Of a stretch of 56,220 bases of DNA, positions 12,699 to 31,685 are shown piece by piece. Position 1 is the stretch's first letter, and every line of letters starts with the position of its first letter. The position numbers and the translations under genes were made by a program. The DNA lies in NCBI GenBank assembly GCA_016840165.1, contig JAEOSU010000041.1, positions 1 through 56,220 of the forward strand. The letters run 5' to 3'. The notes under the pieces were generated by a model that was not told the origin of the DNA, searched no databases, and saw nothing but the letters and a program-made list of their open reading frames with translations. The DNA is from Promethearchaeota archaeon (GTDB taxonomy: Archaea; Asgardarchaeota; Lokiarchaeia; Sigyniarchaeales; SOKP01).

Positions 12699-14933
12699 CT
12701 ATAAATGAACCTCACACTTATCGGAATCACAGAAACGTTCTCCAATAGCCCTATCTCGCGTCTCATCGAGATCTAAAGGCTTTAGATTAGCGATTTTATT
12801 TTCATACTCTTCTTTTGAAATTTCTTCATAAGGCGCTTGTTTATACCCATGTTCTTTAATGGGCAAAAAACTTATACTTTTTAATTTATCCTCACAGAAT
12901 TGTAGTATTCTTTTAATTTCTTTTGCTTCTTCCTTCTTAAAGGTAACAGTAATAGATACTTGATTATCACTCCATAATCCTTGATAGTCTATCGCATTCG
13001 CAACTTGCTCCCATATCGAAACTTCATTTTTTGAACGGTCAAAATATTCCTCATGAACCGGAAATTCTGCAACTACGGTATTAGGAGAGTAGGAATCTTC
13101 CTCAACATAATATCCTGCTTTTTTTATTGGATTAATTAAATCAGAGTTTTTTGAGAGTCGAATTCTTCGAATATAATATTCTGAATGAGGATAATGAATC
13201 CCAGGAGGCACTCCAGGAAGGAGACTCACAGTTCCACTGGGTTTCACAGTAGTTATTTTTATGGACTTCGGAATACAGAGCCAATCGGAATATTGCTCAT
13301 CTAACTGTCGTAGATAAGTATAGGCTTTATCGCACCATTCAAGCATATTCCTTCTACCATGTTTCACAAATGCTTCAATTATACCAGTTTGAGAAATCCC
13401 CATTCGCCGATTCTTCAACATAACCGCGTTCGTTTCTTTCCAGTGCGTATTTACTAATGTCACGCTTTTTGAGTATAAATAAGCATACTTTAAAGTATCT
13501 TGAAATTCCTTATAGGATTCATGTCGTGATGGAAATGTCTCTACCAAACAGCATAATTCAAAACTCTCTAGTGACTGCTCTCCACAAGGGTTCACACCCG
13601 CTACTTTCTTATCCTTATAATCTGGTTTATCTCCCATACGAGAATATTCCCTTGCGTTCTCTAACCAAAAGATTCCCGGTTCACCATTCACCATAATCTG
13701 ATCAGCAATAAAGGAATAATCTAGCCCTTTCACAGCAAAAACACTATTATTACTCGCCCACCTATGCGAATATAATTTTTCTTGATCTTGCTTGCATGTG
13801 ACAAATTCAAGATCCGTGGGATCTCCCAATGCAATTTCTGCACTGCGTCTTACGTTTCCTGCCACTACACATCTGCCAATAAGGTTCATGATATCGACGA
13901 TATCCACCGATGTGATAGCTTTTCCAATTCTATTCTCTAAAATACCTTGGATATCAATCAACATTTCCTTTAATGGTCCGGGTCCGGAGGCAATTCCTCC
14001 AAATCCTCTAATAGGTTCTCCAGCAGGTCGGATCAAATTAAAGTTAAATTTAGGGATCTGCTTTCCGAGGAAAAAAGCTTCTAAAACCAACTTTAAAGAT
14101 TCTACCCATCCTTCTCGACTGTCCTGAATCTCAAAGTCAAAATAACCCTCTTCTGGTTTTTTGATAGTTATCTTTCCTGCACCCTTAGTGTCAAAACCAA
14201 CTCCAACACCTAACATAAGGGCATCCATGACAAATTCAAAGGCTTTTGAGTGTTTTAGGTCGATATCTGCAGTGGAAGCAAATCCACAATTATTAAGAGA
14301 CATGGAGCCATGTCGTGCGATGAATTCAGTTCCCATCATCCAAAGCCCTCTTCCAGGAGGGGAGAATTTGAAGTCCCAGATTTTTTGAAACATAGTCTGT
14401 GCCGAACTTTGAGCTTTATCATCACTCCAAGGCAAACTTAGCTTAATACAGTGTTCCTTTTGTATGGAATAGCATCCTTCAACCACTCGACGCACCGTTT
14501 CCCAGAATTCTTCTTTTCGATTTTCTTTTTCGATCATTCGTGCATAAGTTCTTTTATAGGTTATATATCCTAAAGGACCCCAATCTGGCTGCTTATTTTT
14601 AAATTTCTCAATAAAAGCTTCATCTAATTTAAAACTAATATTTTCCAGATTAATGGCACGAGCAAATAAATTTCTATATTTATTCATACCCCGCTGTGTG
14701 AGTTCCACACAAACCAATTCTCTGATATAATTCGTTGTTATTTCATCTATGCCTAAACCGATAATTTTTCTAATTACATCCGTTGCCACTTCCTCAGCAA
14801 TATGAAAATCTAAACCAGTTTCTTTATTAAGAATCTTTGCAATATTGGTTTCATCAAATGGTTTCTTTTCGCCCTTGGAATTTATAACATACTTTGGATA
14901 TAAATCCGCTAATGAAAATGAATTATTGGTCAT
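12699..14933 (-). CDS. nrdJ: Class II (B12-dependent) ribonucleotide reductase, RTPR-like, with N-terminal ATP cone
   Basis: YKRTYAR, PPGRGLW, LNNC, GVGVGF, VVAGNVRRSAEI, NPCGEQ...CCLVE, KPSGTVS and C-terminal FCDSDKC. Confidence 0.93.
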   Translation of the reverse strand: MTNNSFSLADLYPKYVINSKGEKKPFDETNIAKILNKETGLDFHIAEEVATDVIRKIIGLGIDEITTNYIRELVCVELTQRGMNKYRNLFARAINLENISFKLDEAFIEKFKNKQPDWGPLGYITYKRTYARMIEKENRKEEFWETVRRVVEGCYSIQKEHCIKLSLPWSDDKAQSSAQTMFQKIWDFKFSPPGRGLWMMGTEFIARHGSMSLNNCGFASTADIDLKHSKAFEFVMDALMLGVGVGFDTKGAGKITIKKPEEGYFDFEIQDSREGWVESLKLVLEAFFLGKQIPKFNFNLIRPAGEPIRGFGGIASGPGPLKEMLIDIQGILENRIGKAITSVDIVDIMNLIGRCVVAGNVRRSAEIALGDPTDLEFVTCKQDQEKLYSHRWASNNSVFAVKGLDYSFIADQIMVNGEPGIFWLENAREYSRMGDKPDYKDKKVAGVNPCGEQSLESFELCCLVETFPSRHESYKEFQDTLKYAYLYSKSVTLVNTHWKETNAVMLKNRRMGISQTGIIEAFVKHGRRNMLEWCDKAYTYLRQLDEQYSDWLCIPKSIKITTVKPSGTVSLLPGVPPGIHYPHSEYYIRRIRLSKNSDLINPIKKAGYYVEEDSYSPNTVVAEFPVHEEYFDRSKNEVSIWEQVANAIDYQGLWSDNQVSITVTFKKEEAKEIKRILQFCEDKLKSISFLPIKEHGYKQAPYEEISKEEYENKIANLKPLDLDETRDRAIGERFCDSDKCEVHL

Positions 14934-15357: not shown

Positions 15358-16185
15358 ATGGTAACAGTAGAAAATATGCTACTAGCTCTTGGTATCGCAA
15401 GTATTGTGCTGTTTATTTACATAATTATAGCATTTATCGTCTGTACTATTAAGAAAAATAATGGACTTATGGATGTCTTTTATGGACCAGGCTACGTGGT
15501 GACCTCATTAACCGCATTGATCGTGAGCGTACTCTTAGGCAACTCGTTAAACATTCGACATATCGTTATGAATCTTTTAGTTATTTTTTGGGCAATAAGA
15601 TTAGGATCTTATGTTTATATCCGAAATCACGGAAAACCAGAAGATCGGCGTTATGCTCGAAGGCGCGATGAATGGAAACACTTCTTACTTCAAAGTTTTT
15701 TCCGACAATTTCTTTTTCAAGGAGTAGTCATAATTATTGTAGATATTCCCGTCTGGTTTGTTAATATTATCGATAATCCACCATTCACGAGTCTTCTTGA
15801 TTTCTTTGGAATTACTATATGGTTAGGAGCAATTATTTGGTTTATTGGGTTCATATTCGAAACATTAGGAGATTGGTCTTTATATAAGTTCCTACAGAAA
15901 GTAGAAAACAGAGGAAAGGTGATGGATAAAGGCGTATGGAAATATACTCAGCATCCCAATTATTTCGGGGAGGTTACGCAGTGGTGGGGTTTATTTATAA
16001 TTGCTCTAGCTGTTCCATTCGGATTTATCACCGTTATTGGACCAGCCTATATTACCTTTCAAATTATAAAAGTATCAGGTGTGCGACTTCTGGATAAACA
16101 TTTTGAAGGAAATGAAGAATATCAAGAATATAAGAGAAGAACAAGCTCATTTATCCCGTGGTTTCCAAAAAAAGACAAAGCATAG
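15358..16185 (+). CDS. DUF1295 (steroid 5-alpha-reductase/ICMT-like) membrane protein
   Basis: WAIRLG.Y...R..GK.EDRRY, GVWKYTQHPNYFGE...WWG, Y..YKRRTSSFIPW. Confidence 0.9.
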   Translation: MVTVENMLLALGIASIVLFIYIIIAFIVCTIKKNNGLMDVFYGPGYVVTSLTALIVSVLLGNSLNIRHIVMNLLVIFWAIRLGSYVYIRNHGKPEDRRYARRRDEWKHFLLQSFFRQFLFQGVVIIIVDIPVWFVNIIDNPPFTSLLDFFGITIWLGAIIWFIGFIFETLGDWSLYKFLQKVENRGKVMDKGVWKYTQHPNYFGEVTQWWGLFIIALAVPFGFITVIGPAYITFQIIKVSGVRLLDKHFEGNEEYQEYKRRTSSFIPWFPKKDKA

Positions 16186-16309: not shown

Positions 16310-17245
16310 TTGGGATCTAATATGGGAGTATCCATTAAACCAGAAGAGAAAAAAGAAAATCCAGAAAATGCACAAATAATTAAAGAAGAAATTAATCTGC
16401 AATATCATTGGTATATGGCAGCGTTTTTTATGATCTTTTTTGGCTCTATCATTATTCCCGCACTTCTATTAATTATGTATGTCCAATTTTTTTATCTCCC
16501 ATATTTCTTAAACTCAGACAGTATTATTTCAATATTCAACAATTTAGCACCATTATTAGCTTCGGTTCTTATGCCTTTCGTTCTGATTGGTTGCTATTTA
16601 ATTCATATCTTTTTTGTCGGGCTTATTACTCGTTGGTTTTGGCATATCACTGAAAAGCGATCTCCCTCAAAAGATGGAATTATTCCCCGTAACATTCCTA
16701 GTAAAACGCTCAACTATTATCATGTCCGTTCGTTTATGATTAAGTATCCACGAAATGCAGTCCTTCGTGGTCCATTCCCATGGCTGATTAATTGGCTTTA
16801 TAACTTTATAGGATCCAATAAAATTGGTAAGGGAACTACGATAGAGGAACAATTTGGGGCAGATAAATTCGTGGAAACGGGAGAGAATTGCTACATCGGG
16901 GTAAATTCCGGATTTAGCAGTCATGCTGTAGAAGGGATATTTGGTAATATCAGTTATGCCAAAATTAAGCTTGGAGATAACGTAACCACCGCGGGATTAA
17001 ATTGCCTCGCGCCAGGTGTAGAAGTTAAAGATAACTCTGTTTTGTTCCCACTCGCAGGAGCTACTAAATATAGTACCCTCAAAGAGAATAATTTCTATTT
17101 TGGTGTTCCTCTAAGAAAAATCTTTACGAAAAAAGTCCTAACTTACCTAGATATTGGTGAAGAAGATTTAAAACTAATTGAGCAACCTCAAATCGAAAAA
17201 ACCGAGAACGTAAGTAATAAAAAACAAAACCAAGAAAAATCATGA
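16310..17245 (+). CDS. Two-TM + left-handed beta-helix (hexapeptide) protein, type A, cassette 1
   Basis: Two TM helices, SPSKDGIIPRNIPSKT..YYH.RSFMIKY, then KIGKGTTI..ETGENCYIG..KLGDNVT hexapeptide repeats and FGVP. Confidence 0.85.
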   Translation: MGSNMGVSIKPEEKKENPENAQIIKEEINLQYHWYMAAFFMIFFGSIIIPALLLIMYVQFFYLPYFLNSDSIISIFNNLAPLLASVLMPFVLIGCYLIHIFFVGLITRWFWHITEKRSPSKDGIIPRNIPSKTLNYYHVRSFMIKYPRNAVLRGPFPWLINWLYNFIGSNKIGKGTTIEEQFGADKFVETGENCYIGVNSGFSSHAVEGIFGNISYAKIKLGDNVTTAGLNCLAPGVEVKDNSVLFPLAGATKYSTLKENNFYFGVPLRKIFTKKVLTYLDIGEEDLKLIEQPQIEKTENVSNKKQNQEKS

Positions 17246-18168
17246 ATGACAAAGTACAGACAAAAGAGGATGAGGCGTTCCTATCCGACGCTGAAGACGA
17301 AAAGAAGGAAAAGGATTATGCCATTAATTTTGTAACCAGTAGTGCAATCAATCGAATTAGTTTAAAATTCTTATTATTATATATTCCTATCTTATGGTTT
17401 AGCGGGTATATGGCTTTAGCCATTTTTTTCGATATATCAAGACTCATAAATAACTGGCTTATTACTGCCCTGTTAATTCCTGTATGGTTATTCGGACTCT
17501 ACTTCATTTTGGTGTTTGGATTAGCGATTTTTACCCGTGCTATTCTTGTAATTATCAATATGATTCATAAACCGAAAGAAGGTATATTTAAGGCAAAAGA
17601 AGGATGCCGAGATTTTGAATTCTGGCGCTTGAGAACTGAGCTTAAGAAGCTGGCTCTCTGGTTCATGAATAAAGGTCCGTTACCTTGGATTGTTCCTTGG
17701 GGATTTCGCTGGTTTGGAGTATGCATTGACTTCTCAAGTCATCTTCAAGACGCCTGGGTTGATGTGGACTTTATTGACTTTGGCAGAAAAGTCACTGTGG
17801 GTCAGGGTGCGGTAGTTATGAGTTCCATGATAGTGGGACAATACCTCATTATTAAACGAATTATCATCGATGATTATGCGGTAATCGGGGGTGTATCCAA
17901 TATTTCTCCTGGAACGATATTTAAGAGAGACACAGTGGTTGGCGCGTTTTCAAGTACGAATTTTGATCAAATTCTGGACGAAGGATGGATCTATTTTGGA
18001 ATCCCCGCAATTAAGCTCAAACCTAATAAATACGCTGAAGAGCGCCGGGATAAGATCATTAGAAGAGATGTGGAACGCCAAATTAAGTATGAAGAGCCCC
18101 ATAAAATCAATATTGACGAGGATAAGAAGAATTTAGTTAACAATAATCATAAAAAGGAGAAATTATAA
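17242..18168 (+). CDS. Two-TM + left-handed beta-helix protein, type B, cassette 1
   Basis: FVTSSAI.RI, HKPKEGIF..EFW..R, DAWVD..FI.FGRKV.VGQGAVVMSSM, YFGIPA. ATGA overlap with the upstream gene. Confidence 0.85.
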   Translation: MNDKVQTKEDEAFLSDAEDEKKEKDYAINFVTSSAINRISLKFLLLYIPILWFSGYMALAIFFDISRLINNWLITALLIPVWLFGLYFILVFGLAIFTRAILVIINMIHKPKEGIFKAKEGCRDFEFWRLRTELKKLALWFMNKGPLPWIVPWGFRWFGVCIDFSSHLQDAWVDVDFIDFGRKVTVGQGAVVMSSMIVGQYLIIKRIIIDDYAVIGGVSNISPGTIFKRDTVVGAFSSTNFDQILDEGWIYFGIPAIKLKPNKYAEERRDKIIRRDVERQIKYEEPHKINIDEDKKNLVNNNHKKEKL

Positions 18169-18171
18169 ATC

Positions 18172-19023
18172 ATGTCGATTCCCTCAAGTTTAACAGCAGG
18201 TCCATTCGTCTCATTGGTATTGATAAAAAAAAGATATCTAATATTCTATATATATCTTATTTGGGTAAGTTTATTCACGATTCAATTAGAGTTTTGGTGG
18301 TACTGGGATTTGCTCTATGAATCGAAATTCATCCATTTCATTACATTTTTACCACTCCTCATTTTTTTAATGTATCTCACACTGGTTTTTGTTTCACTTC
18401 TCAATGCAAAATTACTCTTAGTTATAGTTAATCTCATTCATAAACCAAATGAAGGGGTTTTCATGCGTAAATCAAATAATAAATTTGGAAAGGATTATCG
18501 CTATTGGTGTATGCGTAGCGTTATTAAGCGATGGCCTATATGGTTGTCTCATAAATTCCCTCTTCCTTTTCTTGACAATATTTGCTTCAAACTTTTTGGA
18601 ATTCGAACAAAATATTCAAACTCGTTGTTCGAGGCATGGGTAGACACTGAATTTCTTGAATTTGGGAAAGAAGTGGTATTAGGACAGGGGAGCATAATTC
18701 AATCATCGGTTATCATGGGTAACTTACTTATCATTCGGAAGACAATTATTGAGGATAACGTGAAAATTGGAGCTCATAGTGTTGTCATGCCTGGAACAAT
18801 AATCCGCAGAAATGCCATATTAGCCGCAAGTTCGATGACAACTATCGGACAAGAACTTGAGGATGATTGGATTTATTTAGGAGTCCCTGCCAAAAAGTTT
18901 AAGGAAAATGTTTTTTATGAGGAAAATTTGGAAGAAATAATCGAAAAACAGATGCATGATGTAGAAAAAATCAGAAAAGAATATGAAAAATTATATACTA
19001 AAAGATATGACAAAGATCTATAA
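18172..19023 (+). CDS. Two-TM + left-handed beta-helix protein, type C, cassette 1
   Basis: MS.P.S...GPF, KDYRYW, WL.HKFP.PFLDNIC, NSLFE.WVDTEF.EFGK, IEDNVKIGAHSVVMPGT. Confidence 0.85.
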   Translation: MSIPSSLTAGPFVSLVLIKKRYLIFYIYLIWVSLFTIQLEFWWYWDLLYESKFIHFITFLPLLIFLMYLTLVFVSLLNAKLLLVIVNLIHKPNEGVFMRKSNNKFGKDYRYWCMRSVIKRWPIWLSHKFPLPFLDNICFKLFGIRTKYSNSLFEAWVDTEFLEFGKEVVLGQGSIIQSSVIMGNLLIIRKTIIEDNVKIGAHSVVMPGTIIRRNAILAASSMTTIGQELEDDWIYLGVPAKKFKENVFYEENLEEIIEKQMHDVEKIRKEYEKLYTKRYDKDL

Positions 19024-19062
19024 TTAATATTTTAATATAATAATAAAAAAGATGTATTATAA

Positions 19063-19533
19063 ATGGAAGTTGTAAAATTACCAGAGATGAATGAGAAAGA
19101 GATTAAAGAAGCTCTTCAGAGTAATCATTTATGTAGGATTGCGTTTATCGATGAGGATTATCCCTATATTTCCCCATTTCAATATGCATATATAAACGAG
19201 CGAATGTATTTTCACTTCACAGATTATGGAAAGAAAATGAGAATTATTGAACAAAATAATCATGTGTGTGTCTCTATTGAGAATTTTGAACACGATTTAA
19301 AGAAGTACTATTTCATTTCCCTGCAAGGGGAACTAATTGCTGTCAAAGATGATGAAGAAAAGAAACAAGTACTTTTAAAGATGATTTCCGATGCAAAGGA
19401 TAAATACTCACGAAATTTCCTTGCAGCTCATGGGTTTAATAAAGAAAAAGGGTGGGATGCATTCGAATTAAAAAATCAACTAATTTATACTCTATTACAG
19501 AAAAAGAAAGCAATCGGATTAAAGTCCGCATGA
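19063..19533 (+). CDS. Pyridoxamine 5'-phosphate oxidase-like / NimA family flavin-binding protein
   Basis: CRIAF....PYISP..Y......YFH....GKK...I..N..VC. Confidence 0.85.
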   Translation: MEVVKLPEMNEKEIKEALQSNHLCRIAFIDEDYPYISPFQYAYINERMYFHFTDYGKKMRIIEQNNHVCVSIENFEHDLKKYYFISLQGELIAVKDDEEKKQVLLKMISDAKDKYSRNFLAAHGFNKEKGWDAFELKNQLIYTLLQKKKAIGLKSA

Positions 19534-19616
19534 AAATTATCATTAGACAACCTTAGATTAAGATTTATGATTTATAAAGTAATATTTTTTAAATTACATA
19601 TCTATATGCTATTATA

Positions 19617-20483
19617 ATGACGTCGCAAATGAATAAACCTTTATTGGTGGATAATAAAGGGGTTATCAAGGAAGAGGTTAATCTCCAGTATCATTGGTAT
19701 CTCTTCTTATTCTTTATTGTATATTTAACTTCATTTTTACTTCCGAGTAGTATTTTTATGTTTTATATCTGGTATGCCTTTCTGCCTAACTTTTTAAAAG
19801 TATCAAACATCATCTCGGTTTTTACCAATTGGAATTCACTCTTATCCTTGTTATTTATGCCAGGAATCATCTTGGCTTGTTATATAATTCATTTATTTTT
19901 TATCGCATTTACCACACGGTGGATGTGGGCAATCACTGAACGGAAATCTCCCAGTAAAGACGGGATAATCCCTCGAAATATTCCCAGTAAAACGCTAAAC
20001 TATTATCACATCCGTTCATTCATGATTAAATACCCAAAATATGTTTTTAGTAAAGGGCTTTTTCCTTGGCTTTTAAAATGGCTCTATAATTTCGTAGGAA
20101 CAAACAAAATTGGAAAAGGAACTACACTTGAAGAGGAGGTTGGGGCTGATAAGCTCGTAGAGATCGGTGATAACTCTTATATTGGAGTAAACACTATTAT
20201 TACCTCTCATGTAGTTGAGGGAATATTTGGCAATATTTCATATTTTAAAGTTAAGTTAGGAAACAATGTGACTTGTGGAGGGATGAATGGTTTTGGTCCA
20301 GGATCTATTTCAAAAGACAATGCATACTTACTACCTTTTGCGACGGCAGGGAAATATCATCAGCTTAAGGGGGATAATTATTATTTTGGAATTCCCATCC
20401 GTAAAATTTTCCCTAAAAAAGTTATGGATTATTTAAAGCTTACTCCAGAAGATCTAAGAAAAAATAAGGATAAGGATGATTAA
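19617..20483 (+). CDS. Two-TM + left-handed beta-helix protein, type A, cassette 2
   Basis: Paralog of 16310-17245: NLQYHWY, SPSKDGIIPRNIPSKTLNYYH, SH.VEGIFGNISY. Confidence 0.85.
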   Translation: MTSQMNKPLLVDNKGVIKEEVNLQYHWYLFLFFIVYLTSFLLPSSIFMFYIWYAFLPNFLKVSNIISVFTNWNSLLSLLFMPGIILACYIIHLFFIAFTTRWMWAITERKSPSKDGIIPRNIPSKTLNYYHIRSFMIKYPKYVFSKGLFPWLLKWLYNFVGTNKIGKGTTLEEEVGADKLVEIGDNSYIGVNTIITSHVVEGIFGNISYFKVKLGNNVTCGGMNGFGPGSISKDNAYLLPFATAGKYHQLKGDNYYFGIPIRKIFPKKVMDYLKLTPEDLRKNKDKDD

Positions 20484-20486
20484 GAG

Positions 20487-21386
20487 ATGACAAAAGATCA
20501 ACAAGCAGGCAATGACCCAGATTTAACCATAGATTTTATAACTAGTAGTGCGATAGGTCGAATTAATCTAAGATTCCTCTTAATTTACATTCCTGTTTTC
20601 TGGTTAGGAGGGCTAACTGTTATGATCTATGCCGTATCTTTTGTTCCAAAAGTAAATATTTGGATTGGTTCATTATTATATTTACCAGCTTCAATATTTT
20701 TTATGATTTGTTTATTTATATTTGGCTGCGTATTTTTCTCTAAATTATTTCTTATACTGATAAATTTACTCCACAAACCTAAAGAGGGTATCTTCAAAGC
20801 AGAAAAAGGAAATAGAGAATTTGAGTTTTGGCAAATTCGTATTCAGCTAAAAAAGATAGCTATTTGGCTATTAAATAATTGTCCGTTACCTTGGATGAAC
20901 ACTTTGGCTTTTCGATGGTTTGGAGTCAAGGTTGATTTCTCAAGTCATATGATCGATGCTTGGGTGGACACAGAGTTTATCAGTTTCGGAAGAAAGGTTA
21001 TGGTTGGTCAAGGAGCAGTGGTTATGAGTTCTATGATATTAGGAAAATATCTAATCATAAAGAGAGTATATTTAGACGACTATACAGTAGTTGGGGGTCA
21101 AACTTCTGTCTCACCAGGCACTATTATCGGTCAAGACACCGTTCTTGGAGCACTTTCTACCACAACCTTCAATCAGGTTTTAGAACAGAGTTGGCTTTAC
21201 TTTGGTTTCCCAGCTAAAAAACTTAAAGTAAATAAATATGCTGAAGTGAAGCCAGAGGCTATAAAAAGGATTGACGTAGATAATGCGATAGCATATGATG
21301 TCAAATTCGATATAAATATCGATGAAGACAAAAAAGATTTAATTAATAATCATAATAATAAAGATAAATTTAAAGAGGAGAAATAG
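20487..21386 (+). CDS. Two-TM + left-handed beta-helix protein, type B, cassette 2
   Basis: Paralog of 17242-18168: TSSAI.RIN, HKPKEGIFKA, DFSSH..DAWVD, INIDEDKK. Confidence 0.85.
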   Translation: MTKDQQAGNDPDLTIDFITSSAIGRINLRFLLIYIPVFWLGGLTVMIYAVSFVPKVNIWIGSLLYLPASIFFMICLFIFGCVFFSKLFLILINLLHKPKEGIFKAEKGNREFEFWQIRIQLKKIAIWLLNNCPLPWMNTLAFRWFGVKVDFSSHMIDAWVDTEFISFGRKVMVGQGAVVMSSMILGKYLIIKRVYLDDYTVVGGQTSVSPGTIIGQDTVLGALSTTTFNQVLEQSWLYFGFPAKKLKVNKYAEVKPEAIKRIDVDNAIAYDVKFDINIDEDKKDLINNHNNKDKFKEEK

Positions 21387-21390
21387 AAAT

Positions 21391-22308
21391 TTGTCGGTAC
21401 CTTGTTCACTACGCGTAGGACCTTTTACAAGTAATATATTGCTAAAGAAACGGTTTATAGCTATTTATATCGCAATAATATGGCTCAGCTTTATACCGGT
21501 GTTAATGGAATTGTGGCTTTATTGGCAGCTATTGTGGAGTGAGACAAATGCTCTTTATTTTTATTTATTTTTACCTCTTTTTGGACTTTTAGCGTACGTT
21601 TCACTGGTCTTTAGCGGATTATTTGTTGCAAAAATATTTCTCATTGTAATAAATGCCAATCATTCCCCGAAAGAAGGTATTTTCGAGCGTTCTTATTCAG
21701 ATAAAGACTATCGCTATTGGAATATTCGTTTAATCGTAAAAAAATATCCTATATGGATAGCTCATAAATTTCCATTTCCATTTTTGGATAATATATGTCT
21801 CAGGTTATTTGGAACGAAAACTGGATTTGGAAATTCGTTATTTGAAGGATGGGTGGACACAGAGTTTATTGAATTCGGAAAGAATGTTATAGTGGGACAA
21901 GCTAGTATCATACAATCATCAGTTGTTATTGGAAATCTCTTAATTGTCAAGAAAGTAATCATCAAAGATAATGTTAAGATTGGTGCTCACTCTGTTGTTA
22001 TGCCAGGCACAATAATCGAAGAGAATTGTATACTTGCTGCCCATTCATTAACTACTGTTGATCAACATCTTGAAAAGGACTGGATTTATGTAGGAATTCC
22101 CTGTGAGAAATACAAAATCAATGGTTTTAACCAGGATGGCTTAGAAGAACTTATTAATTTAAATATTGATATAGACGGCATTCGAGAAAAATATGAAAAA
22201 TTATATGAGAGGGGAGAACGTATTCACGTAGGGTTGCTTCAACGCAAAAAGGAAAAGGAAGAAAAAATTCAGCAAGAAAAACAAAGATGGCAAAAAGTAC
22301 CCACTTAA
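21391..22308 (+). CDS. Two-TM + left-handed beta-helix protein, type C, cassette 2
   Basis: Paralog of 18172-19023: KDYRYW, HKFPFPFLDNIC, NSLFEGWVDTEF. Confidence 0.85.
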   Translation: MSVPCSLRVGPFTSNILLKKRFIAIYIAIIWLSFIPVLMELWLYWQLLWSETNALYFYLFLPLFGLLAYVSLVFSGLFVAKIFLIVINANHSPKEGIFERSYSDKDYRYWNIRLIVKKYPIWIAHKFPFPFLDNICLRLFGTKTGFGNSLFEGWVDTEFIEFGKNVIVGQASIIQSSVVIGNLLIVKKVIIKDNVKIGAHSVVMPGTIIEENCILAAHSLTTVDQHLEKDWIYVGIPCEKYKINGFNQDGLEELINLNIDIDGIREKYEKLYERGERIHVGLLQRKKEKEEKIQQEKQRWQKVPT

Positions 22309-22314
22309 TTTCTC

Positions 22315-23208
22315 ATGAAAATTGGATATCCGTGTATTAATCTCTCCATGGACTGCCGTAGTAGTCGAACTTTTCGCTTGAAAAATTATTCCGAATCCAA
22401 ACTTATTGAGACTGTGAAAGGAAATTTGGATTGTTTACAAAAGATTCTTGAATATAATCTTGATCATAATTTGTATTTCTTTCGTATAACTTCTGACTTA
22501 ATCCCTTTTGCGTCTCATCCTATTATGAAATTTGACTGGCAGGATTATTTTAAAAATGAATTTCGCAAAATTGGTTCATTTATAAAAAAGCATGACATGA
22601 GAATTACTATGCACCCAGGACAGTATACTGTATTGAACTCAATAAATAACCGAGTATTTCAAAATAGTATAAAAGATTTGGAATACCATGTTGAAGTACT
22701 CGATCTTATGGGATTAGATAAAACGGCAAAAGTACAAATACACGTGGGGGGAATATATGGGGAGAGAGAAAAAAGCCTCCAAAGATATATTTCAAGATAC
22801 AAGATTCTGCAGAATAATATTAAGAAGCGATTGATAATTGAAAATGATGATAAGAGCTATAATTTGAAGGAATGTTTGAGAATTCATGATAAAACGCAGA
22901 TCCCTATTGTATTTGATGTTTATCATCATGAATGTTTAAATTCAGGTGAATCAATAAATCAAGCATTTGAGATTTTTATCAAAACATGGCCCCCAGAGGA
23001 TGGAATACCAATTGTTCATTATAGTTCAGAACACCCTTTAAAGGGAAAACCTGGACATGCAGAACATATTAATATGAATGATTTTAAAAACTTTCTTGAT
23101 AAAACAAGTAATTTTGATTTCGATATTATGTTAGAAATTAAGGATAAGGAAAAAAGTGCTTTGAAAGCATTTGAAACTTTAAGAACAGATCCACGTTTTT
23201 TCAGATAG
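22315..23208 (+). CDS. uvsE: UV DNA damage endonuclease
   Basis: MKIGYPCIN, FRITSDLIPFASHP, MHPGQY..LNS, IHVGG.YG, IENDD, FD.YHH, DIMLE.K.KE. Confidence 0.95.
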   Translation: MKIGYPCINLSMDCRSSRTFRLKNYSESKLIETVKGNLDCLQKILEYNLDHNLYFFRITSDLIPFASHPIMKFDWQDYFKNEFRKIGSFIKKHDMRITMHPGQYTVLNSINNRVFQNSIKDLEYHVEVLDLMGLDKTAKVQIHVGGIYGEREKSLQRYISRYKILQNNIKKRLIIENDDKSYNLKECLRIHDKTQIPIVFDVYHHECLNSGESINQAFEIFIKTWPPEDGIPIVHYSSEHPLKGKPGHAEHINMNDFKNFLDKTSNFDFDIMLEIKDKEKSALKAFETLRTDPRFFR

Positions 23209-23333
23209 TAAAATCTATAATAGTTATATAATATAATTTGCTAAGTACTTTCTGGATTAACAATTGACTTTAAAATAAAAAATATAGCTAAAAATCATCT
23301 TGATTCCCTTTTTATTTGAAAAATATATAAAAT

Positions 23334-23723
23334 ATGGTAATTCTTAGATATATTATAATGAGTCAATCTTTTGATAATTTACTCCAATTTCTTAAGAAAG
23401 TTCCTTCAATATTTGGTTCACTAAGTAATGGTATCAAAGAGGGGTTATGGTGGGTGAAATTTAGAATAGATATACAACACCCTTTAGCTTGGAATGTCAT
23501 TCAAGAATTTGGATACGTACTTAATGATTTATCCTTAAAAGAAAAATTACCTACTGTTTTCATGCCTATTTCGCCACCTCCATATATGAATGGAGGGCCT
23601 TATGAGTTTTTATCTTGGGTGATTGAATCCAAATCTAAAGAGTTTACTCCAAATGATGCTGTGGATTGGTTAAAAAATCGGTTACCAGATCCTGTCAATA
23701 ATATAAAAAAGTGGAAAGTTTAG
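23334..23723 (+). CDS. Conserved hypothetical protein
   Basis: Conserved-looking core WWVKF.IDI.HPLAW.V.QE.G.VLN.LS..E.LPTVF.P.SPPPY.NGGP..FLSWVIE. Confidence 0.75.
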   Translation: MVILRYIIMSQSFDNLLQFLKKVPSIFGSLSNGIKEGLWWVKFRIDIQHPLAWNVIQEFGYVLNDLSLKEKLPTVFMPISPPPYMNGGPYEFLSWVIESKSKEFTPNDAVDWLKNRLPDPVNNIKKWKV

Positions 23724-23827
23724 GAATAATTAAGATGATAAAAAATAAGCTTATTTAATTTCTATAGATATCCACGTTCTATTCATTCTATTTAGATAAA
23801 TTCCTTTTTTTATTTTATTTTTCATTG

Positions 23828-25459
23828 TTATTGCAAGACGTAGAGAGGCCATTTTTTTAGAATTCCTTTTGGTATTTCTCCAGATTTTACCTTCTTTAAC
23901 TTAATTTCGCGAGATTCCCAAAAATCAACTGGTTGATCATCAATCAATTCGATCATAATTGTATTACCTTCAAATAACTGATGAAAATCCACCATATCTT
24001 TGCTTTCTGTTATATTATCTTTAATAATTTTTGCATTCTGGCAAGAAGAGCTGTAAGGTAAAATGAGTCTATATTTATCCTTTTTGTTATTTTGAGATAT
24101 TAATAGCATCGAATCGGTTTTGAACTCACAATTTTCTTTTAAAAAAAACAAAAGCTTTCGAGGTTCTTTAATATCAAATGTGTTAAATGTAAAAAAATCG
24201 CCCGCATAGAGATCAAAAGAACGAGGAGTCATAATTTTATTAGATAATTTAATAGGATATTGCAATTTAAAACTTGATCGTAGAATTTTTCCTTCAATAA
24301 GAGGGAGTCCATTTTTATTATCTAAAATAGAAATTACATCCCCTAAATCAATATTAATAAGGGCGTCTTTCTCATCCATTCTGGAAACAAATAGTTTTCC
24401 ATATCCCGAGGTTATCTGAGATATTGGGTAAACCTTGGACTTTATTTCTAATGCAGCTATTGAGAGGGGAAAGACAAACATATCGTTAAAATGAGTATTA
24501 ATATAATCTTTTTTAGCAATACTGGCAGCAAAGGGTCCTATCTCTGAAATTACATAAAGATTGGTAAATTTTTCTTTTCCTTTTTCCCAGTTCATAAAGT
24601 TTCGAATTAGATTCCAATTATCTTCTGAGAGTGAACTAATACTAAATACTATTGTGGCATCTGATAATTTTTTTGAGAGTCTTTCTTGAATGATTCTAGA
24701 AGCCTCCTCAAGACCCTTTTTTTTAATAATAGTAATTAACTCCTGTAATGCAGGATCAGGGTTCTCTGGGATTCTTTGGAGAGATGCAGCGATCCCAACC
24801 TTGAGTTTATCCTGATTTGCCCAACCAAGTATAGTTAATGCAGGTGCGGAAACTACTGCAATATTCTCTAATTGGAGCATTTTAGCGATTACTTCTAAAT
24901 TCTTTGCATTTTTATACTCATAAAATAGATATGAACGTGGTTTAACTACTGAGAGCATTATCCTTTGAGAAAATTCGGATGAATATAAGGAGATATAATC
25001 TTGTCCATTAGAAGTTTGCAAGCCATCATACTTTATTCTAGAGGGCACAAAAATTATTGCAGATTTTTTGTTTGTTAATCCACTTGATTCAAAAATAGCT
25101 TGCATCCCTGGAGCCCAGTTTCTTTCGACGACCTCCTTCGACATAAAGAACCATTTAAGTGCAGATAATTTGCTATTGGTCGTTCCAGAAGTATGGCAAA
25201 CGGTAGGAATGAATGAGTTATCATAATTTTTGAGGAAATTTTCTAAATTGAGTGAAAAATGTCTACTTTGTGTTTTAACTCTTTTAATTTTATCAAAAAG
25301 ATCACTTACTGAATCTAATCCTGAATTTTTCAAGCATGCTTCTTCAAATTCTTGAGGAGAGAGCAGTTCAAGCCATTTCTTCCAATTAAGTGGTGAAATA
25401 TCACCAAAATTATCATTTAAAATATCTTGAACATTTGTATCGAAATCGAATTTAGTCAT
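23828..25459 (-). CDS. GH3/PaaK/LuxE-like adenylate-forming (ANL superfamily) enzyme
   Basis: P-loop-like HTSGTT....K, Y..SE.G (NLYVISEIG) and LGDV (IDLGDVI) in the order seen in GH3 acyl-amido synthetases. Confidence 0.65.
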   Translation of the reverse strand: MTKFDFDTNVQDILNDNFGDISPLNWKKWLELLSPQEFEEACLKNSGLDSVSDLFDKIKRVKTQSRHFSLNLENFLKNYDNSFIPTVCHTSGTTNSKLSALKWFFMSKEVVERNWAPGMQAIFESSGLTNKKSAIIFVPSRIKYDGLQTSNGQDYISLYSSEFSQRIMLSVVKPRSYLFYEYKNAKNLEVIAKMLQLENIAVVSAPALTILGWANQDKLKVGIAASLQRIPENPDPALQELITIIKKKGLEEASRIIQERLSKKLSDATIVFSISSLSEDNWNLIRNFMNWEKGKEKFTNLYVISEIGPFAASIAKKDYINTHFNDMFVFPLSIAALEIKSKVYPISQITSGYGKLFVSRMDEKDALINIDLGDVISILDNKNGLPLIEGKILRSSFKLQYPIKLSNKIMTPRSFDLYAGDFFTFNTFDIKEPRKLLFFLKENCEFKTDSMLLISQNNKKDKYRLILPYSSSCQNAKIIKDNITESKDMVDFHQLFEGNTIMIELIDDQPVDFWESREIKLKKVKSGEIPKGILKKWPLYVLQ

Positions 25460-25528
25460 TCACTCTTTTACCACAGAAATTGTTATTCTATATAGTATTA
25501 TTATTGCTTTTATTAATTAAGCTTATAA

Positions 25529-26110
25529 TCAAAAAGTAAAAAGAAAATAAAATGGAATGGTACTAAGGTAGATAGTGTGTATTACTATACCATATTCCCC
25601 GGTTAGTCCATCTTGGAATAGTGGTAAATGCGGAGGAAAATACGTGAACAAGATAAAAAGTAGCCCAATAATAACCAATCCTACTAGCGAGACTATCGAC
25701 ACTGACTTTTTTAATCGCTTCATTGTAAGAATTTTATAGCTTACAAACTGTGCTAGGACAACTGCGAGGCCAAAACTTAGAATGTCAAGAAATAAGACCT
25801 CTTCACCTAAAATTGGTGTATATGAGTAAAAGAACACTATAATGAACACAATAATCACTAAAGAAGCCGCTAATTTAGCGAGAAAAATGTTTTTAGCTTC
25901 ATCTTTAATGAAATTATATTGAATTAAAGTAAAAAATATTAATGGCCAGTATCCTAATTTTAGATGCTCCCACACACTCTCATTTACTGCTGCTATTGCA
26001 CCAATTGGAGCCCAATATCCTGTAAGTTCGAATAGGAAATGCATAAACGAGCCGAGGAATAGTATAAAGAACATACCACCAATTTCCCAGTATAAAATTT
26101 TTTTATTCAT
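25529..26110 (-). CDS. DUF6512-like membrane protein
   Basis: LGS..HF.FE......AVNESVWEHLKL...P, FTYFPPHLPLFQD..TG.YG. Confidence 0.75.
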   Translation of the reverse strand: MNKKILYWEIGGMFFILFLGSFMHFLFELTGYWAPIGAIAAVNESVWEHLKLGYWPLIFFTLIQYNFIKDEAKNIFLAKLAASLVIIVFIIVFFYSYTPILGEEVLFLDILSFGLAVVLAQFVSYKILTMKRLKKSVSIVSLVGLVIIGLLFILFTYFPPHLPLFQDGLTGEYGIVIHTIYLSTIPFYFLFTF

Positions 26111-26298
26111 CTTAGTATCACAGATTTGATTAATTTAAAAGGGAATATGAATCGTAAAATTTAATCAAATTGGTTAGAGATTATAAATAATCTTGCCATA
26201 ACACCTTTTTAAGGTCTGCAAATTAGTCTGGTACTTTATAATTTATGAGACATAATCTTAGTAATTACTTTTAAAAGTATAAAAAAAATCAATAATTA

Positions 26299-27321
26299 TT
26301 GCTTATTATGAAAGCAGCAGTCTTTAATGGAAATGATTTAGTAATTAAAAATGTAGATACTCCAACTTTAACTCCATCCCAAGTCTTAATTCAAGTAAAA
26401 GCTGTTGGGTTATGTGGTACTGATTTAGCTATTATTGAAGGTCATCTACCAACTCCTACTCCAATTATTATTGGACATGAATTTTCAGGCATCATCGTAG
26501 AAGTGGGTGAAAGTGTAGATTCAGCATGGATTGGAAAGCGAGTTGTTTCTGAAATTAATAGCAATATTGACTTTTCGTGCTATTATTGTGAAAGGAATAT
26601 TTTTACTCAATGTATATCGAGGAAAGCTATAGGAATCGATATTGATGGAGCATTAGCAGAATATATCGCTATTGAGTCCTATTTAGTTCATGAAATCTCA
26701 GATTCTCTCTCATTAAATGACGCAACATTTGTCGAACCATTAGCTGCTGCTTACCAGACGTTCGAGATGATGCCTTTAGAAGATGATGATAAAACTATTG
26801 CTATTTTTGGTCTAGGGAAATTAGGCTTATTAATCCTCCAAATTGCAGTATTTAAAAATTTTAAAGTTATCGCTATTGACGGATCTGAAAAAAAATTAAG
26901 ATTAGCTGAAGAATTCGGAGCATCAAAACTAATTAATCGTTTAGCAGTCAATAATATTTCTCAAAAGATCAGAGAATCCACGAATGGTTTAGGTGCAGAT
27001 ATAGTCATTGACTGCAGTGGGAATCCAAATGCTCTCGTTAATGTTGTTTCATCATGTAGGACACGAGGAAAGATTCATATAAAAAGTACTCATGGATTAG
27101 GCACTCCACTAGACTTAACTGATTTAGTGGTAAGAGAGATAACTATATACACAAGTAGATGTGGACCATTTAGAAAAGCAATTGAAGGATTGGAAAAAAA
27201 CCATGTTTCTGTAAAAGAGTTAATTTCGGATATATATAAATTTGAAAAGATCAAAGATGCTTTTGCTAACTATAAAAAGGATCGAGATATAATAAAAATT
27301 ATCATCTCATTTGAAAGTTGA
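26299..27321 (+). CDS. Zinc-dependent medium-chain alcohol dehydrogenase (threonine/sorbitol dehydrogenase-like)
   Basis: GLCGTD, GHEFSG, EPLAAA, GLGKLG and SRCGPF motifs. Confidence 0.9.
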   Translation: MLIMKAAVFNGNDLVIKNVDTPTLTPSQVLIQVKAVGLCGTDLAIIEGHLPTPTPIIIGHEFSGIIVEVGESVDSAWIGKRVVSEINSNIDFSCYYCERNIFTQCISRKAIGIDIDGALAEYIAIESYLVHEISDSLSLNDATFVEPLAAAYQTFEMMPLEDDDKTIAIFGLGKLGLLILQIAVFKNFKVIAIDGSEKKLRLAEEFGASKLINRLAVNNISQKIRESTNGLGADIVIDCSGNPNALVNVVSSCRTRGKIHIKSTHGLGTPLDLTDLVVREITIYTSRCGPFRKAIEGLEKNHVSVKELISDIYKFEKIKDAFANYKKDRDIIKIIISFES

Positions 27322-27515
27322 ATCAAATACGTCTAATCTTTCCGTAATTTTCATAAGCTTGAGAATATAATCTACGTTTTAGCGGGGATCTCATCAAAAA
27401 AACAGGCTTTTTTTTATCAATATAAGTTTAAAAGATAAAAAACATAACTATTAAAATAAAATATAAACCGAAAATCAATTTGATTTAAAGAGTAATAAAA
27501 AAAATATTTGATCAA

Positions 27516-29393
27516 TTGATATTTATGACAAAACAAGATATTGCTTATGAGCAACCTTCTGTAGTGAATCCCCCTAAAGAAGTAATGAGAGAAGATATAA
27601 ACATGCAATATTCTCTTTATATAACAGTATTCCTATTGATCTATTACGGATCATGGCTCATTCCAGGAATCGCTTTTTTCACCTATGTATTAAATTTCTT
27701 TGTACCATACTTTTTAGAAGTGAGTAATTTCTTCTCCTTGTTTACTGACTTATATTCATTAATAATGTTAGTTACCTTTCCATTGGTGTTAATTGGGTGC
27801 TATTTGATACGACTTCTTTTCATTGGAATTATAACCCGAATTTTTTGGAGGATAACCGAAAAAGTTTCACCATCTAAATCGGGTATAATCCCACGTAATA
27901 TTCGTAGTAAGACAGCGAACTATTATCATTTACGTTCATTCATGATAAAATACGGAAAAAACGTATTCACCAAGGGGGCATTTCCCTGGTTATCAAATTG
28001 GTTTTTTCGATTTGTAGGTTCAGCCAAAATAGGAAAAAAAACCACGATAGAAGAATCAGTAGGTAATGATAAGTTTTATGATATCGGAAATAATTGTTAT
28101 CTCGGTGTAAATTCAACATTAGCCAGTCATTTAGTTCAAGGAATCTTTGGCAACATATCATATTTTGAAATAAAGGTGGAGGATAATGTAACAACTGCTG
28201 GGATGAACCAGCTTGGACCAGGCTGTGAACTTCATGATAACACATATCTATTACCCTTAGCTTCCACGAGTAAACACAGCATTTTAAAAGGCGGACATAA
28301 TTATTACTTCGGGATTCCTCTTCGAAAAATCTTTAAAAAGAAAATTATGGAATATTTAGGAATCACAAGAAAGGATATCGAAAGAAACGAGAATCTTGAA
28401 CAGGCAATTAAAGAGCTTGAAGCAAAGAAAAAGAAGAAAGTGAAAGAGGAGGACAAAAGTGAATTAATAGAGGAAATCGAGGAATCAGAAGAAGATGAAG
28501 ATGAGGATGAGGAAGAAATTGAGGTTAACGAAGAGCTTAAAGAAGAGGAACTTAATATTGATTTCACAACGAGCAGTGCGATTAGTAGAATAAATTTAAA
28601 GTTTTTAGCGGTATACTTACCTATATTTTGGCTAGCAGGGTTGACGATATGTATTTATTGGTATGAGTATACTAAAGAGGGTGTTGAATTATCTACTCTT
28701 TTGTTTTTACCCATTTCTATCCTTTTTATGATTTATATCTTTATTTTCGCTTGTTTACTTTTCAGCAAGTTGATCTTAATTTTAATTAATTTAATTCATA
28801 AACCAAAGGAGGGAATATTTTTAGCAGAAATCGGTGATACGGATTTTGAGTTCTGGAAGGCAAGAACAGAGATAAAAAAGATAGTTCTATGGTTATTACG
28901 CAATTCTCCTTTAACTTGGCTAGACATGCTCGCTTTTAAAGCGTTAGGATTAAAAATGGATTCAGGAAGTCACCTCAATGATGCTTGGTGTGATGCTGAA
29001 TTCGTAGATATAGGTCGTAAGGTTTTAATAGGGCAAGGAGCAACTGTGATGTCGTCGATGGTAATTGGGAAATATTTAATTATAAAGAAGGTTATTTTTG
29101 ACGACTATTCGATGGTAGGTGGCCACACAACCATAGCCCCAGGTACGATAATCGGGCATGATAGCGTAATTGGCGCTGTAAGTTCAACATCCTATTGTCA
29201 AGTGTTAAAAGACAAATGGATATACTTTGGATTTCCTGCCATACCTCTAAAAGAAAATAAGTATGCGGAGGAAAGAAGGGATCTTATTATTAAACGAGAT
29301 GTAGATGACGAAAAGAAGTTTGAAATGGACCACGATGTTAATGTTGATGAAGACAAGAAGGATCTAATAAAACTTAAGGAGGATGAGGAGTAA
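27516..29393 (+). CDS. Fused type A + type B two-TM/left-handed beta-helix protein, cassette 3
   Basis: N-half matches type A (GIIPRNIRSKT, SHLVQGIFGNISY) and C-half matches type B (FTTSSAISRIN, HKPKEGIF, NVDEDKK). The halves are joined by a Lys/Glu/Asp-rich linker. Confidence 0.87.
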   Translation: MIFMTKQDIAYEQPSVVNPPKEVMREDINMQYSLYITVFLLIYYGSWLIPGIAFFTYVLNFFVPYFLEVSNFFSLFTDLYSLIMLVTFPLVLIGCYLIRLLFIGIITRIFWRITEKVSPSKSGIIPRNIRSKTANYYHLRSFMIKYGKNVFTKGAFPWLSNWFFRFVGSAKIGKKTTIEESVGNDKFYDIGNNCYLGVNSTLASHLVQGIFGNISYFEIKVEDNVTTAGMNQLGPGCELHDNTYLLPLASTSKHSILKGGHNYYFGIPLRKIFKKKIMEYLGITRKDIERNENLEQAIKELEAKKKKKVKEEDKSELIEEIEESEEDEDEDEEEIEVNEELKEEELNIDFTTSSAISRINLKFLAVYLPIFWLAGLTICIYWYEYTKEGVELSTLLFLPISILFMIYIFIFACLLFSKLILILINLIHKPKEGIFLAEIGDTDFEFWKARTEIKKIVLWLLRNSPLTWLDMLAFKALGLKMDSGSHLNDAWCDAEFVDIGRKVLIGQGATVMSSMVIGKYLIIKKVIFDDYSMVGGHTTIAPGTIIGHDSVIGAVSSTSYCQVLKDKWIYFGFPAIPLKENKYAEERRDLIIKRDVDDEKKFEMDHDVNVDEDKKDLIKLKEDEE

Positions 29394-30345
29394 TTTGTCT
29401 GTTCCAAATACTATGAAAATAGGGCCATTTGTTCCAAGTATACTTGCGAAGCGCCGTTATTTGATTTTTTATTTCTATATAGTGTGGGCAAGTATTATCC
29501 CTCTGATACTTGAATTTTGGGTATACTGGCGCTTACTATGGAATTTTGATAGACCGATTCACTTTTACACCTTTCTTCCATTATTATTTTTTGGATTATA
29601 TGTAAGTTTAGTTTTCTCAGCCATCTTTTTTGCCAAAATAGCGTTAGTTGTTGTAAACTGGATACATAGACCAAGAGAAGGGGTTTTCTTAAGGCATCCA
29701 GCCGATAAAGATTTTCGTTATTGGAGCTTAAGAAATACTATAAAGAGATGGCCTATTTGGGTTGCCCATAAATTTCCCTTTCCATTTTTAGATAATGTTT
29801 GCTTTAAAGTTTTTGGAACAAGAACAAAGCTTGGAAACTCACTCTTTGAGGGTTGGGTGGATACAGAATTCATTGAATTTGGAAAGGATGTCGTGGTTGG
29901 TCAAGGTGCTATAGTTCAATCTTCGGTAATCATCGGAAATCTTATTATCATTAAAAAAATCGTAATTGAAGATGAGGTAAGGATAGGTTCTCATGCAATC
30001 ATCTCCCCTGGCACTCATATTGGAAAAAGAGCAGTTGTCGCATCAAATACAGTAACCATCGTCGATCAAGAGCTAGAAGAAGGTTATATTTATATAGGAA
30101 TTCCTGCGAAAAAGTACAAGAAAAATTGGTTTTTCGAAGATGGACTGCAGGATAAGCTAGGTCAAGTAAAAGATATAGAAGAGTTGATTGAAAAGTATGA
30201 AAAGATCTATATAAGACGGTATGATAGCCAACCAGGGTACAAAGAGCGTAGAGAACGTAAAAAAGAAAAGAAGGAAGTGGAGAAACAGCGTTTTGATGCT
30301 GCAGAAAAGGAATGGGAAGAAGTAGACGATGGATTTAACATATAA
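29383..30345 (+). CDS. Two-TM + left-handed beta-helix protein, type C, cassette 3 (likely TTG start at 29395)
   Basis: SVP....GPF, KDFRYW, HKFPFPFLDN.C, NSLFEGWVDTEF. Confidence 0.85.
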   Translation: MRSNLSVPNTMKIGPFVPSILAKRRYLIFYFYIVWASIIPLILEFWVYWRLLWNFDRPIHFYTFLPLLFFGLYVSLVFSAIFFAKIALVVVNWIHRPREGVFLRHPADKDFRYWSLRNTIKRWPIWVAHKFPFPFLDNVCFKVFGTRTKLGNSLFEGWVDTEFIEFGKDVVVGQGAIVQSSVIIGNLIIIKKIVIEDEVRIGSHAIISPGTHIGKRAVVASNTVTIVDQELEEGYIYIGIPAKKYKKNWFFEDGLQDKLGQVKDIEELIEKYEKIYIRRYDSQPGYKERRERKKEKKEVEKQRFDAAEKEWEEVDDGFNI

Positions 30346-30977: not shown

Positions 30978-31685
30978 CTATTTGAGAATAAAATAAATTC
31001 TCCGATTATCTTTTCCTTTATTTACGGTTTTAATTATTTCAATTTGACCAATTTCATTAAGATGATTTATATGAGTCCCACCATCTACTTGTTCATCGAT
31101 ATCTCCTATTTTGACGATTCGATATTCTTTAATATTTTCCGGTAATCCCACTGCTAGTCGCGCAAGTTCGGGTTTATCCATAACTTCTTCTCTTGACATA
31201 TAATCAATTGTAATTGGTAAATCTCGTTTTATAATATCATTTGCTTCTACAACAAAATCACGTAATTTTTCAGGAGCGTAATCCTTCATTGAGAAATCTA
31301 TTCTTGTTTTTTCTAACTCGATTTGATTTCCTGTTATTTTGGCATTAGCCCTTCGATAAAGAATGTTGGATATCAAATGAGCCGCAGTATGATAGCGCAT
31401 AAAGGTATAGCGTCGTTCCCAATTAAGTTTGCAGTGGACTTTATCTCCTACCTTTAAGCCCGGTTTATCGACTTCATGGCTTATTTGTCCAGAAAATTTC
31501 CCAACATACACAACATTATAGGTATTTCCATTACTGGATATTATTCCTTCGTCAAATGGTTGTCCTCCACCTTTTGGATAAAAAGCAGTATTATCAAGGA
31601 TAATATATTTATCATCTTTTACATCCGTTACGTTTGCATCCCATTCTTTTAAATAGGAGTCATCCATGTATAAAGCTTTGGTCAT
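30978..31685 (-). CDS. alaX: Free-standing alanyl-tRNA editing protein AlaX-M
   Basis: LY..DSY, TAFYP.GGGQP.D.G, MRYHTAAH, DGGTH. Confidence 0.93.
   Translation of the reverse strand: MTKALYMDDSYLKEWDANVTDVKDDKYIILDNTAFYPKGGGQPFDEGIISSNGNTYNVVYVGKFSGQISHEVDKPGLKVGDKVHCKLNWERRYTFMRYHTAAHLISNILYRRANAKITGNQIELEKTRIDFSMKDYAPEKLRDFVVEANDIIKRDLPITIDYMSREEVMDKPELARLAVGLPENIKEYRIVKIGDIDEQVDGGTHINHLNEIGQIEIIKTVNKGKDNRRIYFILK

Follow-up and report, generated by a model that had tools for sequence, protein, structure and literature searches.

We describe here three cassettes of genes for small membrane proteins with a left-handed beta-helix (LbH), arranged A-B-C three times at positions 16310-30345 of a 56,220-nucleotide stretch of DNA (the window), which is contig C19 of a 3.6-Mb Asgard metagenome-assembled genome (MAG) that is 99.7% complete. 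On the sequence evidence, the cassettes are part of a real, strongly conserved and lineage-restricted system, homologous to the terminal module of epsilon-poly-L-lysine synthetase (Pls) and delta-poly-L-ornithine synthetase (PosA) and yet separately evolved. We propose, at a probability of about 55%, that each cassette encodes one membrane-embedded, pseudo-threefold ABC acyltransferase with a single active site, to which the acyl donor would be supplied in trans.

Eight open reading frames (ORFs) on the forward strand hold nine homologous units (Table 1), and they lie exactly where a preliminary description of the window had placed its three cassettes. The view taken there that a cassette comprises three genes holds for cassettes 1 and 2; cassette 3 has two, as A3 and B3 are fused. 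Neighbouring genes within the cassettes overlap or lie 3-4 nt apart: the start of B1 overlaps the stop of A1 by 4 nt, and C1 begins 3 nt past the stop of B1 in the same frame. Outside the window the genome has six further units, which brings its total to 15: contig C15 carries a 2+1 cassette, C34 one of two units, and C30 a lone unit.

Every unit is built from two long hydrophobic segments, a conserved linker, hexapeptide coils and a closing G-x-P. By their LbH repeats the units are members of the hexapeptide (trimeric LpxA-like) acyltransferase superfamily: PF00132 scores above its cut-off in C1, C2, C3 and A3-B3 and more weakly in the remaining units, and hexapeptide repeats are all that Pfam detects in them. 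Pairwise E-values among units run from 1e-9 to 1e-128, which excludes chance likeness. Units of one type are 50-58% identical, B and C share 33-38%, and A shares 20-29% with B or C; each type is therefore closer to its counterparts across cassettes than to its neighbours inside one, as had already been noticed. The G of the P-x-E-G motif, an R, a P-G and the closing G-x-P are invariant in all units. The linker pattern previously given for the units, P.EG.F...W..R, fits B and C, which read P-K-E-G-I-F...Y-W..R, and fails for A, which reads S-P-S-K-D/S-G-I-I-P-R-N...Y-Y-H-x-R.

How far does the likeness to Pls and PosA go? The best NCBIfam match of every B and C unit is TIGR02353, the model of the Pls/PosA terminal domain, and the alignments begin at profile positions 8-37, reaching the membrane and linker part. 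TIGR02353 is unspecific on ordinary LbH proteins, which it matches in 13 of 14 control genomes, and specificity was therefore checked by other routes. When a profile built from this genome's 15 units was run against 1.84 billion representative proteins, 146 matches fell below 1e-30, among them Asgard units and proteins with three tandem matches. The latter include a fragmentary Desulfobulbaceae "peptide synthetase" (P0266), which at 612 bits exceeds the TIGR02353 cut-off, proteins of the non-ribosomal peptide synthetase (NRPS) type with an adenylation domain and three repeats (P0256, P0272), and, in Elusimicrobiota and a chytrid, stand-alone three-repeat proteins (P0206, P0228, P0253, P0262). 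Aligned by hhalign with 30 Pls-like repeats, the Asgard units matched at a probability of 99.8% (E 1e-28, 162 columns) from the linker motif (P-K-E-G/K-P-G-I-Y) through to the G-x-P-A end; against P0266 alone the unit profile matched in the LbH part only, and linker homology needed the 30-repeat profile. As a control, none of the soluble LbH proteins of the same genome scored above 21.6 bits with the unit profile, and they matched in the helix region only. Seen in both search directions, the homology of the units to the Pls/PosA terminal repeats is, as judged by these profiles, real and goes beyond a generic beta-helix, which bears out the resemblance first proposed. Sequence searches of the PDB for a solved Pls terminal domain returned none, soluble LbH enzymes alone coming up. 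The published model of PosA builds each unit from a helix pair, two helices with a strand and a five-turn LbH, and sets three LbH over six membrane helices with approximate three-fold symmetry (PMC10522769).

Homology does not make the cassettes a Pls taken apart in the evolutionary sense, as the first description had it. In a maximum-likelihood tree built from 48 units and repeats, the Asgard units all fall into a single clade (100/99) that contains no bacterial or fungal repeat. This clade holds a His-bearing A-like group (A1-3, the middle unit on C15, the middle repeat of the fusion protein P0127 and the C30 singleton) and a second group of B/C-like units. Since the Asgard units form a separate clade, A, B and C are not orthologues of C1, C2 and C3 of Pls; on this tree, the three-fold differentiation into A, B and C is one that arose independently in the Asgard lineage, a sister lineage to the Pls repeats. 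The earlier statement that the cassettes have no fused adenylation or carrier domains is correct, none being present in or near them. A search of the literature for the Asgard system, or for TIGR02353, found no publication describing it.

The system is common within a narrow group. A-type genes, one to five per genome, occur in 123 of the 135 genomes of the GTDB family. A search with B2 (E 1e-30) found matches in 25/25 sampled genomes of the family and in 1/2 of a sister family; the other families of the phylum sample gave none. All close homologues are labelled as Promethearchaeota-type; the single-protein scan returned only MAGs of this type plus one "Nanopelagicaceae" contig. The latter (L153, DATKTW010000040.1; full label "Candidatus Nanopelagicaceae bacterium") has a C-type gene with 54% identity to that of the window and is most likely a mis-binned Asgard contig.

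Which of the units could be catalytic? In 52/52 A units one column of the helix holds His. The six B and C units of the window all have Ser there, as do at least 80% of the B (57) and C (47) units used for comparison. A PDB profile search aligns the A-type His with His115 of Escherichia coli LacA and with the His of maltose acetyltransferase (MAT); the H115A exchange in LacA abolishes about 90% of activity (PMC12775004). Exactly one His-bearing unit is also found on C15 (the middle unit), on C34 (the first unit) and in the C30 singleton. Five of six two-unit cassettes of other families have one His unit and the sixth has His in both, and several bacterial three-repeat proteins have the His in a single repeat only. 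We consider A to be probably the single catalytic subunit of each cassette, with a putative general-base His. B and C are conserved as strongly as A despite lacking the His, and their invariant polar residues at the helix start (F-S-S-H-L-x-D-A-W in B, F-S-N-S-L-F-E-G-W in C) may line the A site from the opposite side.

A catalytic His that is missing from two of three subunits would also suit an assembly that is no acyltransferase, for instance a membrane channel or anchor in which the LbH serves structure or transport. Such a module exists in the gamma-carbonic-anhydrase heterotrimer of plant and protist complex I, which is membrane-attached, is built from LbH paralogues and does not have active-site residues in all subunits; the cassettes would share its heterotrimeric state as proposed here, whereas its chemistry and membrane attachment are different and its sequence similarity is distant. 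Gamma-carbonic-anhydrase-type LbH proteins are among the sequence matches, and coiled-coil proteins adjoin two-unit cassettes. However, the His is kept in every A unit at the LacA/MAT catalytic position and the best relatives are enzymes, and we regard a non-enzymatic module as very unlikely.

Do A, B and C act together? The inspected loci, on which their co-occurrence rests (the genome-wide count was made for the A type), number about 30 and come from some 25 genomes of the same GTDB family; the order A-B-C is kept in them nearly without exception, A-B fusions recur and are frequent, and adjoining genes overlap start to stop or are separated by 3-6 nt. B-C-type two-unit fusions of 594-598 residues exist as well (P0121/P0122). 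The order of the C15-type cassette, C'-A'-B', is a cyclic permutation of A-B-C, so that neighbour relations in a ring would be kept; the same order is found in P0127, a natural 797-residue three-unit fusion from another Promethearchaeota MAG. The fixed order, the fusions, the cyclic permutation and the presence of one His-bearing type per cassette make a heterotrimer of A, B and C a plausible and the most economical reading. The independent occurrence of the three types, which had been named as a point to look for, applies to related unit types, as single units and as two-unit cassettes, the latter also in other families of the order; types A, B and C themselves stay together.

Several observations weigh against the heterotrimeric enzyme. 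The TIGR02353 scores of the eight window proteins, 11.8-51.2 bits, are far from the cut-off of 423.1 bits, which was passed in 0/31 related genomes. Four loci (L040, L042, L043, L048) carry an AB fusion without adjoining C, placed between the genes for ribonucleotide reductase and a DUF1295 protein, which means that the stoichiometry is not always 1:1:1 in cis. The linker of the AB fusion, at 40-50 residues, could also permit separate A3 and B3 trimers. Neighbouring genes differ between cassettes and none is universal. Finally, an AlphaFold2 (AF2) prediction gave no structural support: an A-B-C chain (L054:1501-4323, read through a single in-frame TGA, with 11 paired read-through rows as alignment) was modelled from this shallow alignment with a mean predicted local distance difference test (pLDDT) score of 51 and a predicted template modelling (pTM) score of 0.42, values at which packing cannot be judged; at that mean pLDDT its secondary structure consists of short strands with LbH periodicity. 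A mixed alignment of 59 rows for the same chain was discarded, as MAFFT had put B units on the C repeat.

The AB fusions without C and the long flexible linkers between fused units would be accommodated by homotrimers of each type, in which the A homotrimer is the sole enzyme, those of B and C are regulators, scaffolds or catalysts of other chemistry, and operons and fusions provide co-localisation. Single-unit relatives indicate that homotrimers are possible; they include the C30 unit of this genome and numerous one-unit proteins from the profile search. Set against this are the existence of exactly three types in fixed order with a cyclic permutation in a paralogous cassette, three-unit fusions that mirror the single-domain model of Pls/PosA, and the strong conservation of the His-less B and C, and we rate separate homotrimers as distinctly unlikely.

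The ABC acyltransferase that we favour may work as follows. A complex would contain one subunit each of A, B and C, every one with a two-helix membrane hairpin, a linker predicted to face the cytoplasm, and an LbH; the three beta-helices would pack side by side, as in hexapeptide acyltransferases and the modelled polymerisation domain of Pls/PosA. A alone would contribute the general-base His, while B and C, non-catalytic, would complete the ring and probably provide the other wall of the site. An activated acyl group would arrive in trans, most likely as an acyl-CoA thioester, and may be moved to an acceptor that sits at or within the membrane. The three cassettes of the window and the paralogues on C15, C34 and C30 could then be isoenzymes with different substrates.

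Acyl-CoA is the default donor of LbH enzymes. PF00550 (phosphopantetheine-attachment domain) and PF01648 (ACPS-type transferase) have no match in this nearly complete genome, although both are found in most control genomes; the genome has 15 AMP-binding genes of the acyl-CoA-ligase type. An acyl-CoA donor is likelier than a Pls-style tethered amino acid, because the genome is without carrier protein or phosphopantetheinyl transferase (PPTase). The polyamide product that had been suggested alongside acylated lipids and surface glycans is weakened by this absence of any carrier system. The cassettes could still encode true synthases of poly(amino acids) or polyamides if the donor were activated in trans by a GH3/PaaK-like enzyme, another ligase or an aminoacyl-tRNA, and the polymer extruded through the six-helix bundle. 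The closest characterised relatives do polymerise diamino acids, a gene of GH3/PaaK fold lies between cassettes 2 and 3, and an AlaX-type tRNA-editing gene lies downstream. Nevertheless, besides the missing carrier protein and PPTase, the GH3-like gene was found in only part of the sampled family and elsewhere occurs without units nearby, and the Asgard units stand in a clade separate from all NRPS-linked repeats; we think such a synthase unlikely. A more specific statement of function, namely that these are Asgard-specific, acyl-CoA-dependent acyltransferases acylating membrane lipids or lipid-linked surface precursors, multiplied as isoenzymes to 15 units per genome, or else carrier-protein-independent makers of polyamides, is at this stage doubtful, and we would give it a low probability.

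The GH3/PaaK-like gene encodes a 543-residue Asgard orphan. Its AF2 model (pLDDT 89) matches BT_0428, JAR1, GH3.15 and PaaK1 in Foldseek at a probability of 1.0 and E-values of 3e-11 to 1e-8. The protein has no Pfam or NCBIfam match, and is for this reason a member of the adenylate-forming (ANL) enzymes, GH3/PaaK branch, at the level of its two-domain fold only. Its family counts about 295 "hypothetical" Asgard proteins, in which the P-loop-like motif H-T-S-G-T-T is invariant. The gene is present in 16/25 sampled genomes of family f1, all 25 of which have cassettes; of the 17 f1 genomes that carry it, 11 have it no more than 10 kb from a cassette. Family f21 and the genomes G070 and G167 have it with no unit nearby, travelling with a UvdE gene and a PNPOx-like gene. 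Distribution and synteny rule out the 543-residue protein as an obligate partner of the cassettes; as a supplier of donor it is a possible, non-obligate candidate. In G167 the gene directly adjoins the UvdE and PNPOx-like genes, away from any cassette.

Similar to the terminal domain of Pls/PosA (TM1-6 with C1-C2-C3; TM, transmembrane), the units combine a helix pair, a P-x-G-aromatic...R linker, an LbH of about five turns and a G-x-P-A end, and three of them make one functional module, which for the cassettes is our proposal. The two differ in that Pls/PosA has the three units on one polypeptide, fed by adenylation and thiolation domains, whereas the cassettes have separate genes or a 2+1 fusion and no such domains, form a clade of their own and keep the His in one unit of three. 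The stand-alone three-repeat proteins (P0206, P0228, P0253, P0262; 650-810 residues) are similar in having three [2TM+LbH] units without adenylation or thiolation domains and, in several cases, the His in one repeat; they differ in being one chain, in a separate clade, with TIGR02353 scores of 157-264 bits vs at most 51 bits here. P0262, a stand-alone three-repeat Pls-like membrane module of 809 residues, comes from the chytrid Obelidium mucronatum, and a protein of 6612 residues from an unknown source (P0274) ends in repeats nearly identical to it. The O-acetyltransferases LacA, MAT and WcaF (LacA, PDB 1KRR) have in common with the units the LbH fold and the His115 position, followed by a loop and terminal coils, and use an acyl-CoA donor; they are, in contrast, soluble homotrimers with three identical sites and have neither a membrane hairpin nor a P-K-E-G linker.

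Few catalytic modules of non-ribosomal peptide synthesis are as poorly understood as the polymerisation domain of Pls/PosA. The Asgard cassettes present a module of this kind as separately encoded subunits, and would thereby offer a natural dissection of the repeat that performs the chemistry from those that serve as scaffold. They also suggest an ancient origin for the [2TM+LbH] unit as a free-standing building block, which may have become heterotrimeric more than once. The family of these putative membrane enzymes is large and confined to one lineage, and its hosts are organisms whose membrane and surface chemistry bears on eukaryogenesis. If the reading is true and the acceptor is a glycerol- or polyprenyl-based lipid, the cassettes would represent a hitherto unseen way to make ester-linked or acylated lipids, in the lineage of archaea that is nearest to eukaryotes.

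Table 1. Cassette units and neighbouring genes in the window.
Feature	Position (nt)	Strand	Remarks
DUF1295 membrane protein, steroid-reductase/ICMT-like clan	15358..16185	+	
A1, 2-TM + LbH unit, His-bearing, putative catalytic type	16310..17245	+	His205 = nt 16922-16924, aligns with LacA His115
B1, 2-TM + LbH unit, Ser at catalytic-His position	17242..18168	+	TIGR02353 E 3e-7, residues 48-267
C1, 2-TM + LbH unit, Ser at catalytic-His position	18172..19023	+	Hexapep 36.7 bits
A2, His-bearing unit	19617..20483	+	His198 = nt 20208-20210
B2, His-less unit	20487..21386	+	TIGR02353 E 1e-9
C2, His-less unit	21391..22308	+	TIGR02353 E 6e-11, residues 37-241 on profile 18-213
543-residue Asgard orphan, GH3/PaaK-type adenylate-forming (ANL) fold, HTSGTT motif	23828..25459	-	Candidate donor-activating enzyme
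DUF6512 membrane protein	25529..26110	-	
Zn-dependent alcohol dehydrogenase (Zn-ADH)	26299..27321	+	Directly upstream of AB+C cassette
A3-B3, natural fusion of 625 residues, one ORF	27516..29393	+	TIGR02353 E 6e-14, two stretches; acidic linker at about residues 300-345; A3 His205 = nt 28128-28130
C3, His-less unit	29383..30345	+	Start overlaps A3-B3 end by 11 nt
AlaX-type tRNA-editing gene	30978-31685		

The surroundings of the cassettes follow a block that is kept across genera. It comprises ribonucleotide reductase, in some genomes an AB fusion, DUF1295, an ABC cassette, the PNPOx-like and UvdE genes, the 543-residue gene, DUF6512, Zn-ADH, an AB+C cassette and AlaX. The DUF1295 gene stands beside an ABC cassette in 7/12 genomes inspected, the window included. 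DUF6512, the 543-residue gene and Zn-ADH form a conserved trio beside the AB+C cassette in several genera, and Zn-ADH is the most consistent neighbour of that cassette. The paralogous cassettes have varied neighbours, which include genes for an acyl-CoA dehydrogenase, a major facilitator superfamily (MFS) transporter, GDPD, GT4, coiled-coil proteins and a protein resembling ADP-forming acyl-CoA synthetase. Conserved neighbours were dropped as a clue to function because of this heterogeneity.

The genes for the UV-damage endonuclease UvdE and for a PNPOx-like FMN-binding protein (22315-23208 and 19063-19533, respectively) are interleaved with the cassettes; since elsewhere they stay paired with or without cassettes, they are probably unrelated passengers. 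Class II ribonucleotide reductase, encoded beside cassettes, has 744 residues here (12699-14933) vs 1147 residues in L049 (11485-14928), which may carry an intein or another insertion. Long coiled-coil proteins adjoin two-unit cassettes in three genomes: C34 13219-14109 on the forward strand (L008), L158 6297-7418 and L161 5544-6350, the last with a CPBP/Rce1-like protease between the coiled-coil gene and the cassette. An opposite-strand ORF of about 131 residues lies just upstream of AB+C in L040 (7747-8142), L042 (7333-7770), L043 (7127-7522), L046 (8017-8415), L051 (9124-9516) and L053 (8768-9163), and between AB and C in L044 (17404-17799); the window has no counterpart at that position.

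Two observations concern the boundaries of fused genes. At seven loci from related genomes of the same genus (L054-L058, L061, L083) the AB fusion ends in TGA and C starts 3-6 nt further on in the same frame, so that read-through of the TGA would yield one A-B-C chain; this may mean nothing, as the way the sample was obtained biases it to in-frame cases. Other loci have TAA, followed by gaps of 6-18 nt that keep the frame. At G235:C162:3497-7102, an open frame of 1222 residues extends over an AB match and may run into a second AB, possibly as a four-unit fusion or through a missing stop.

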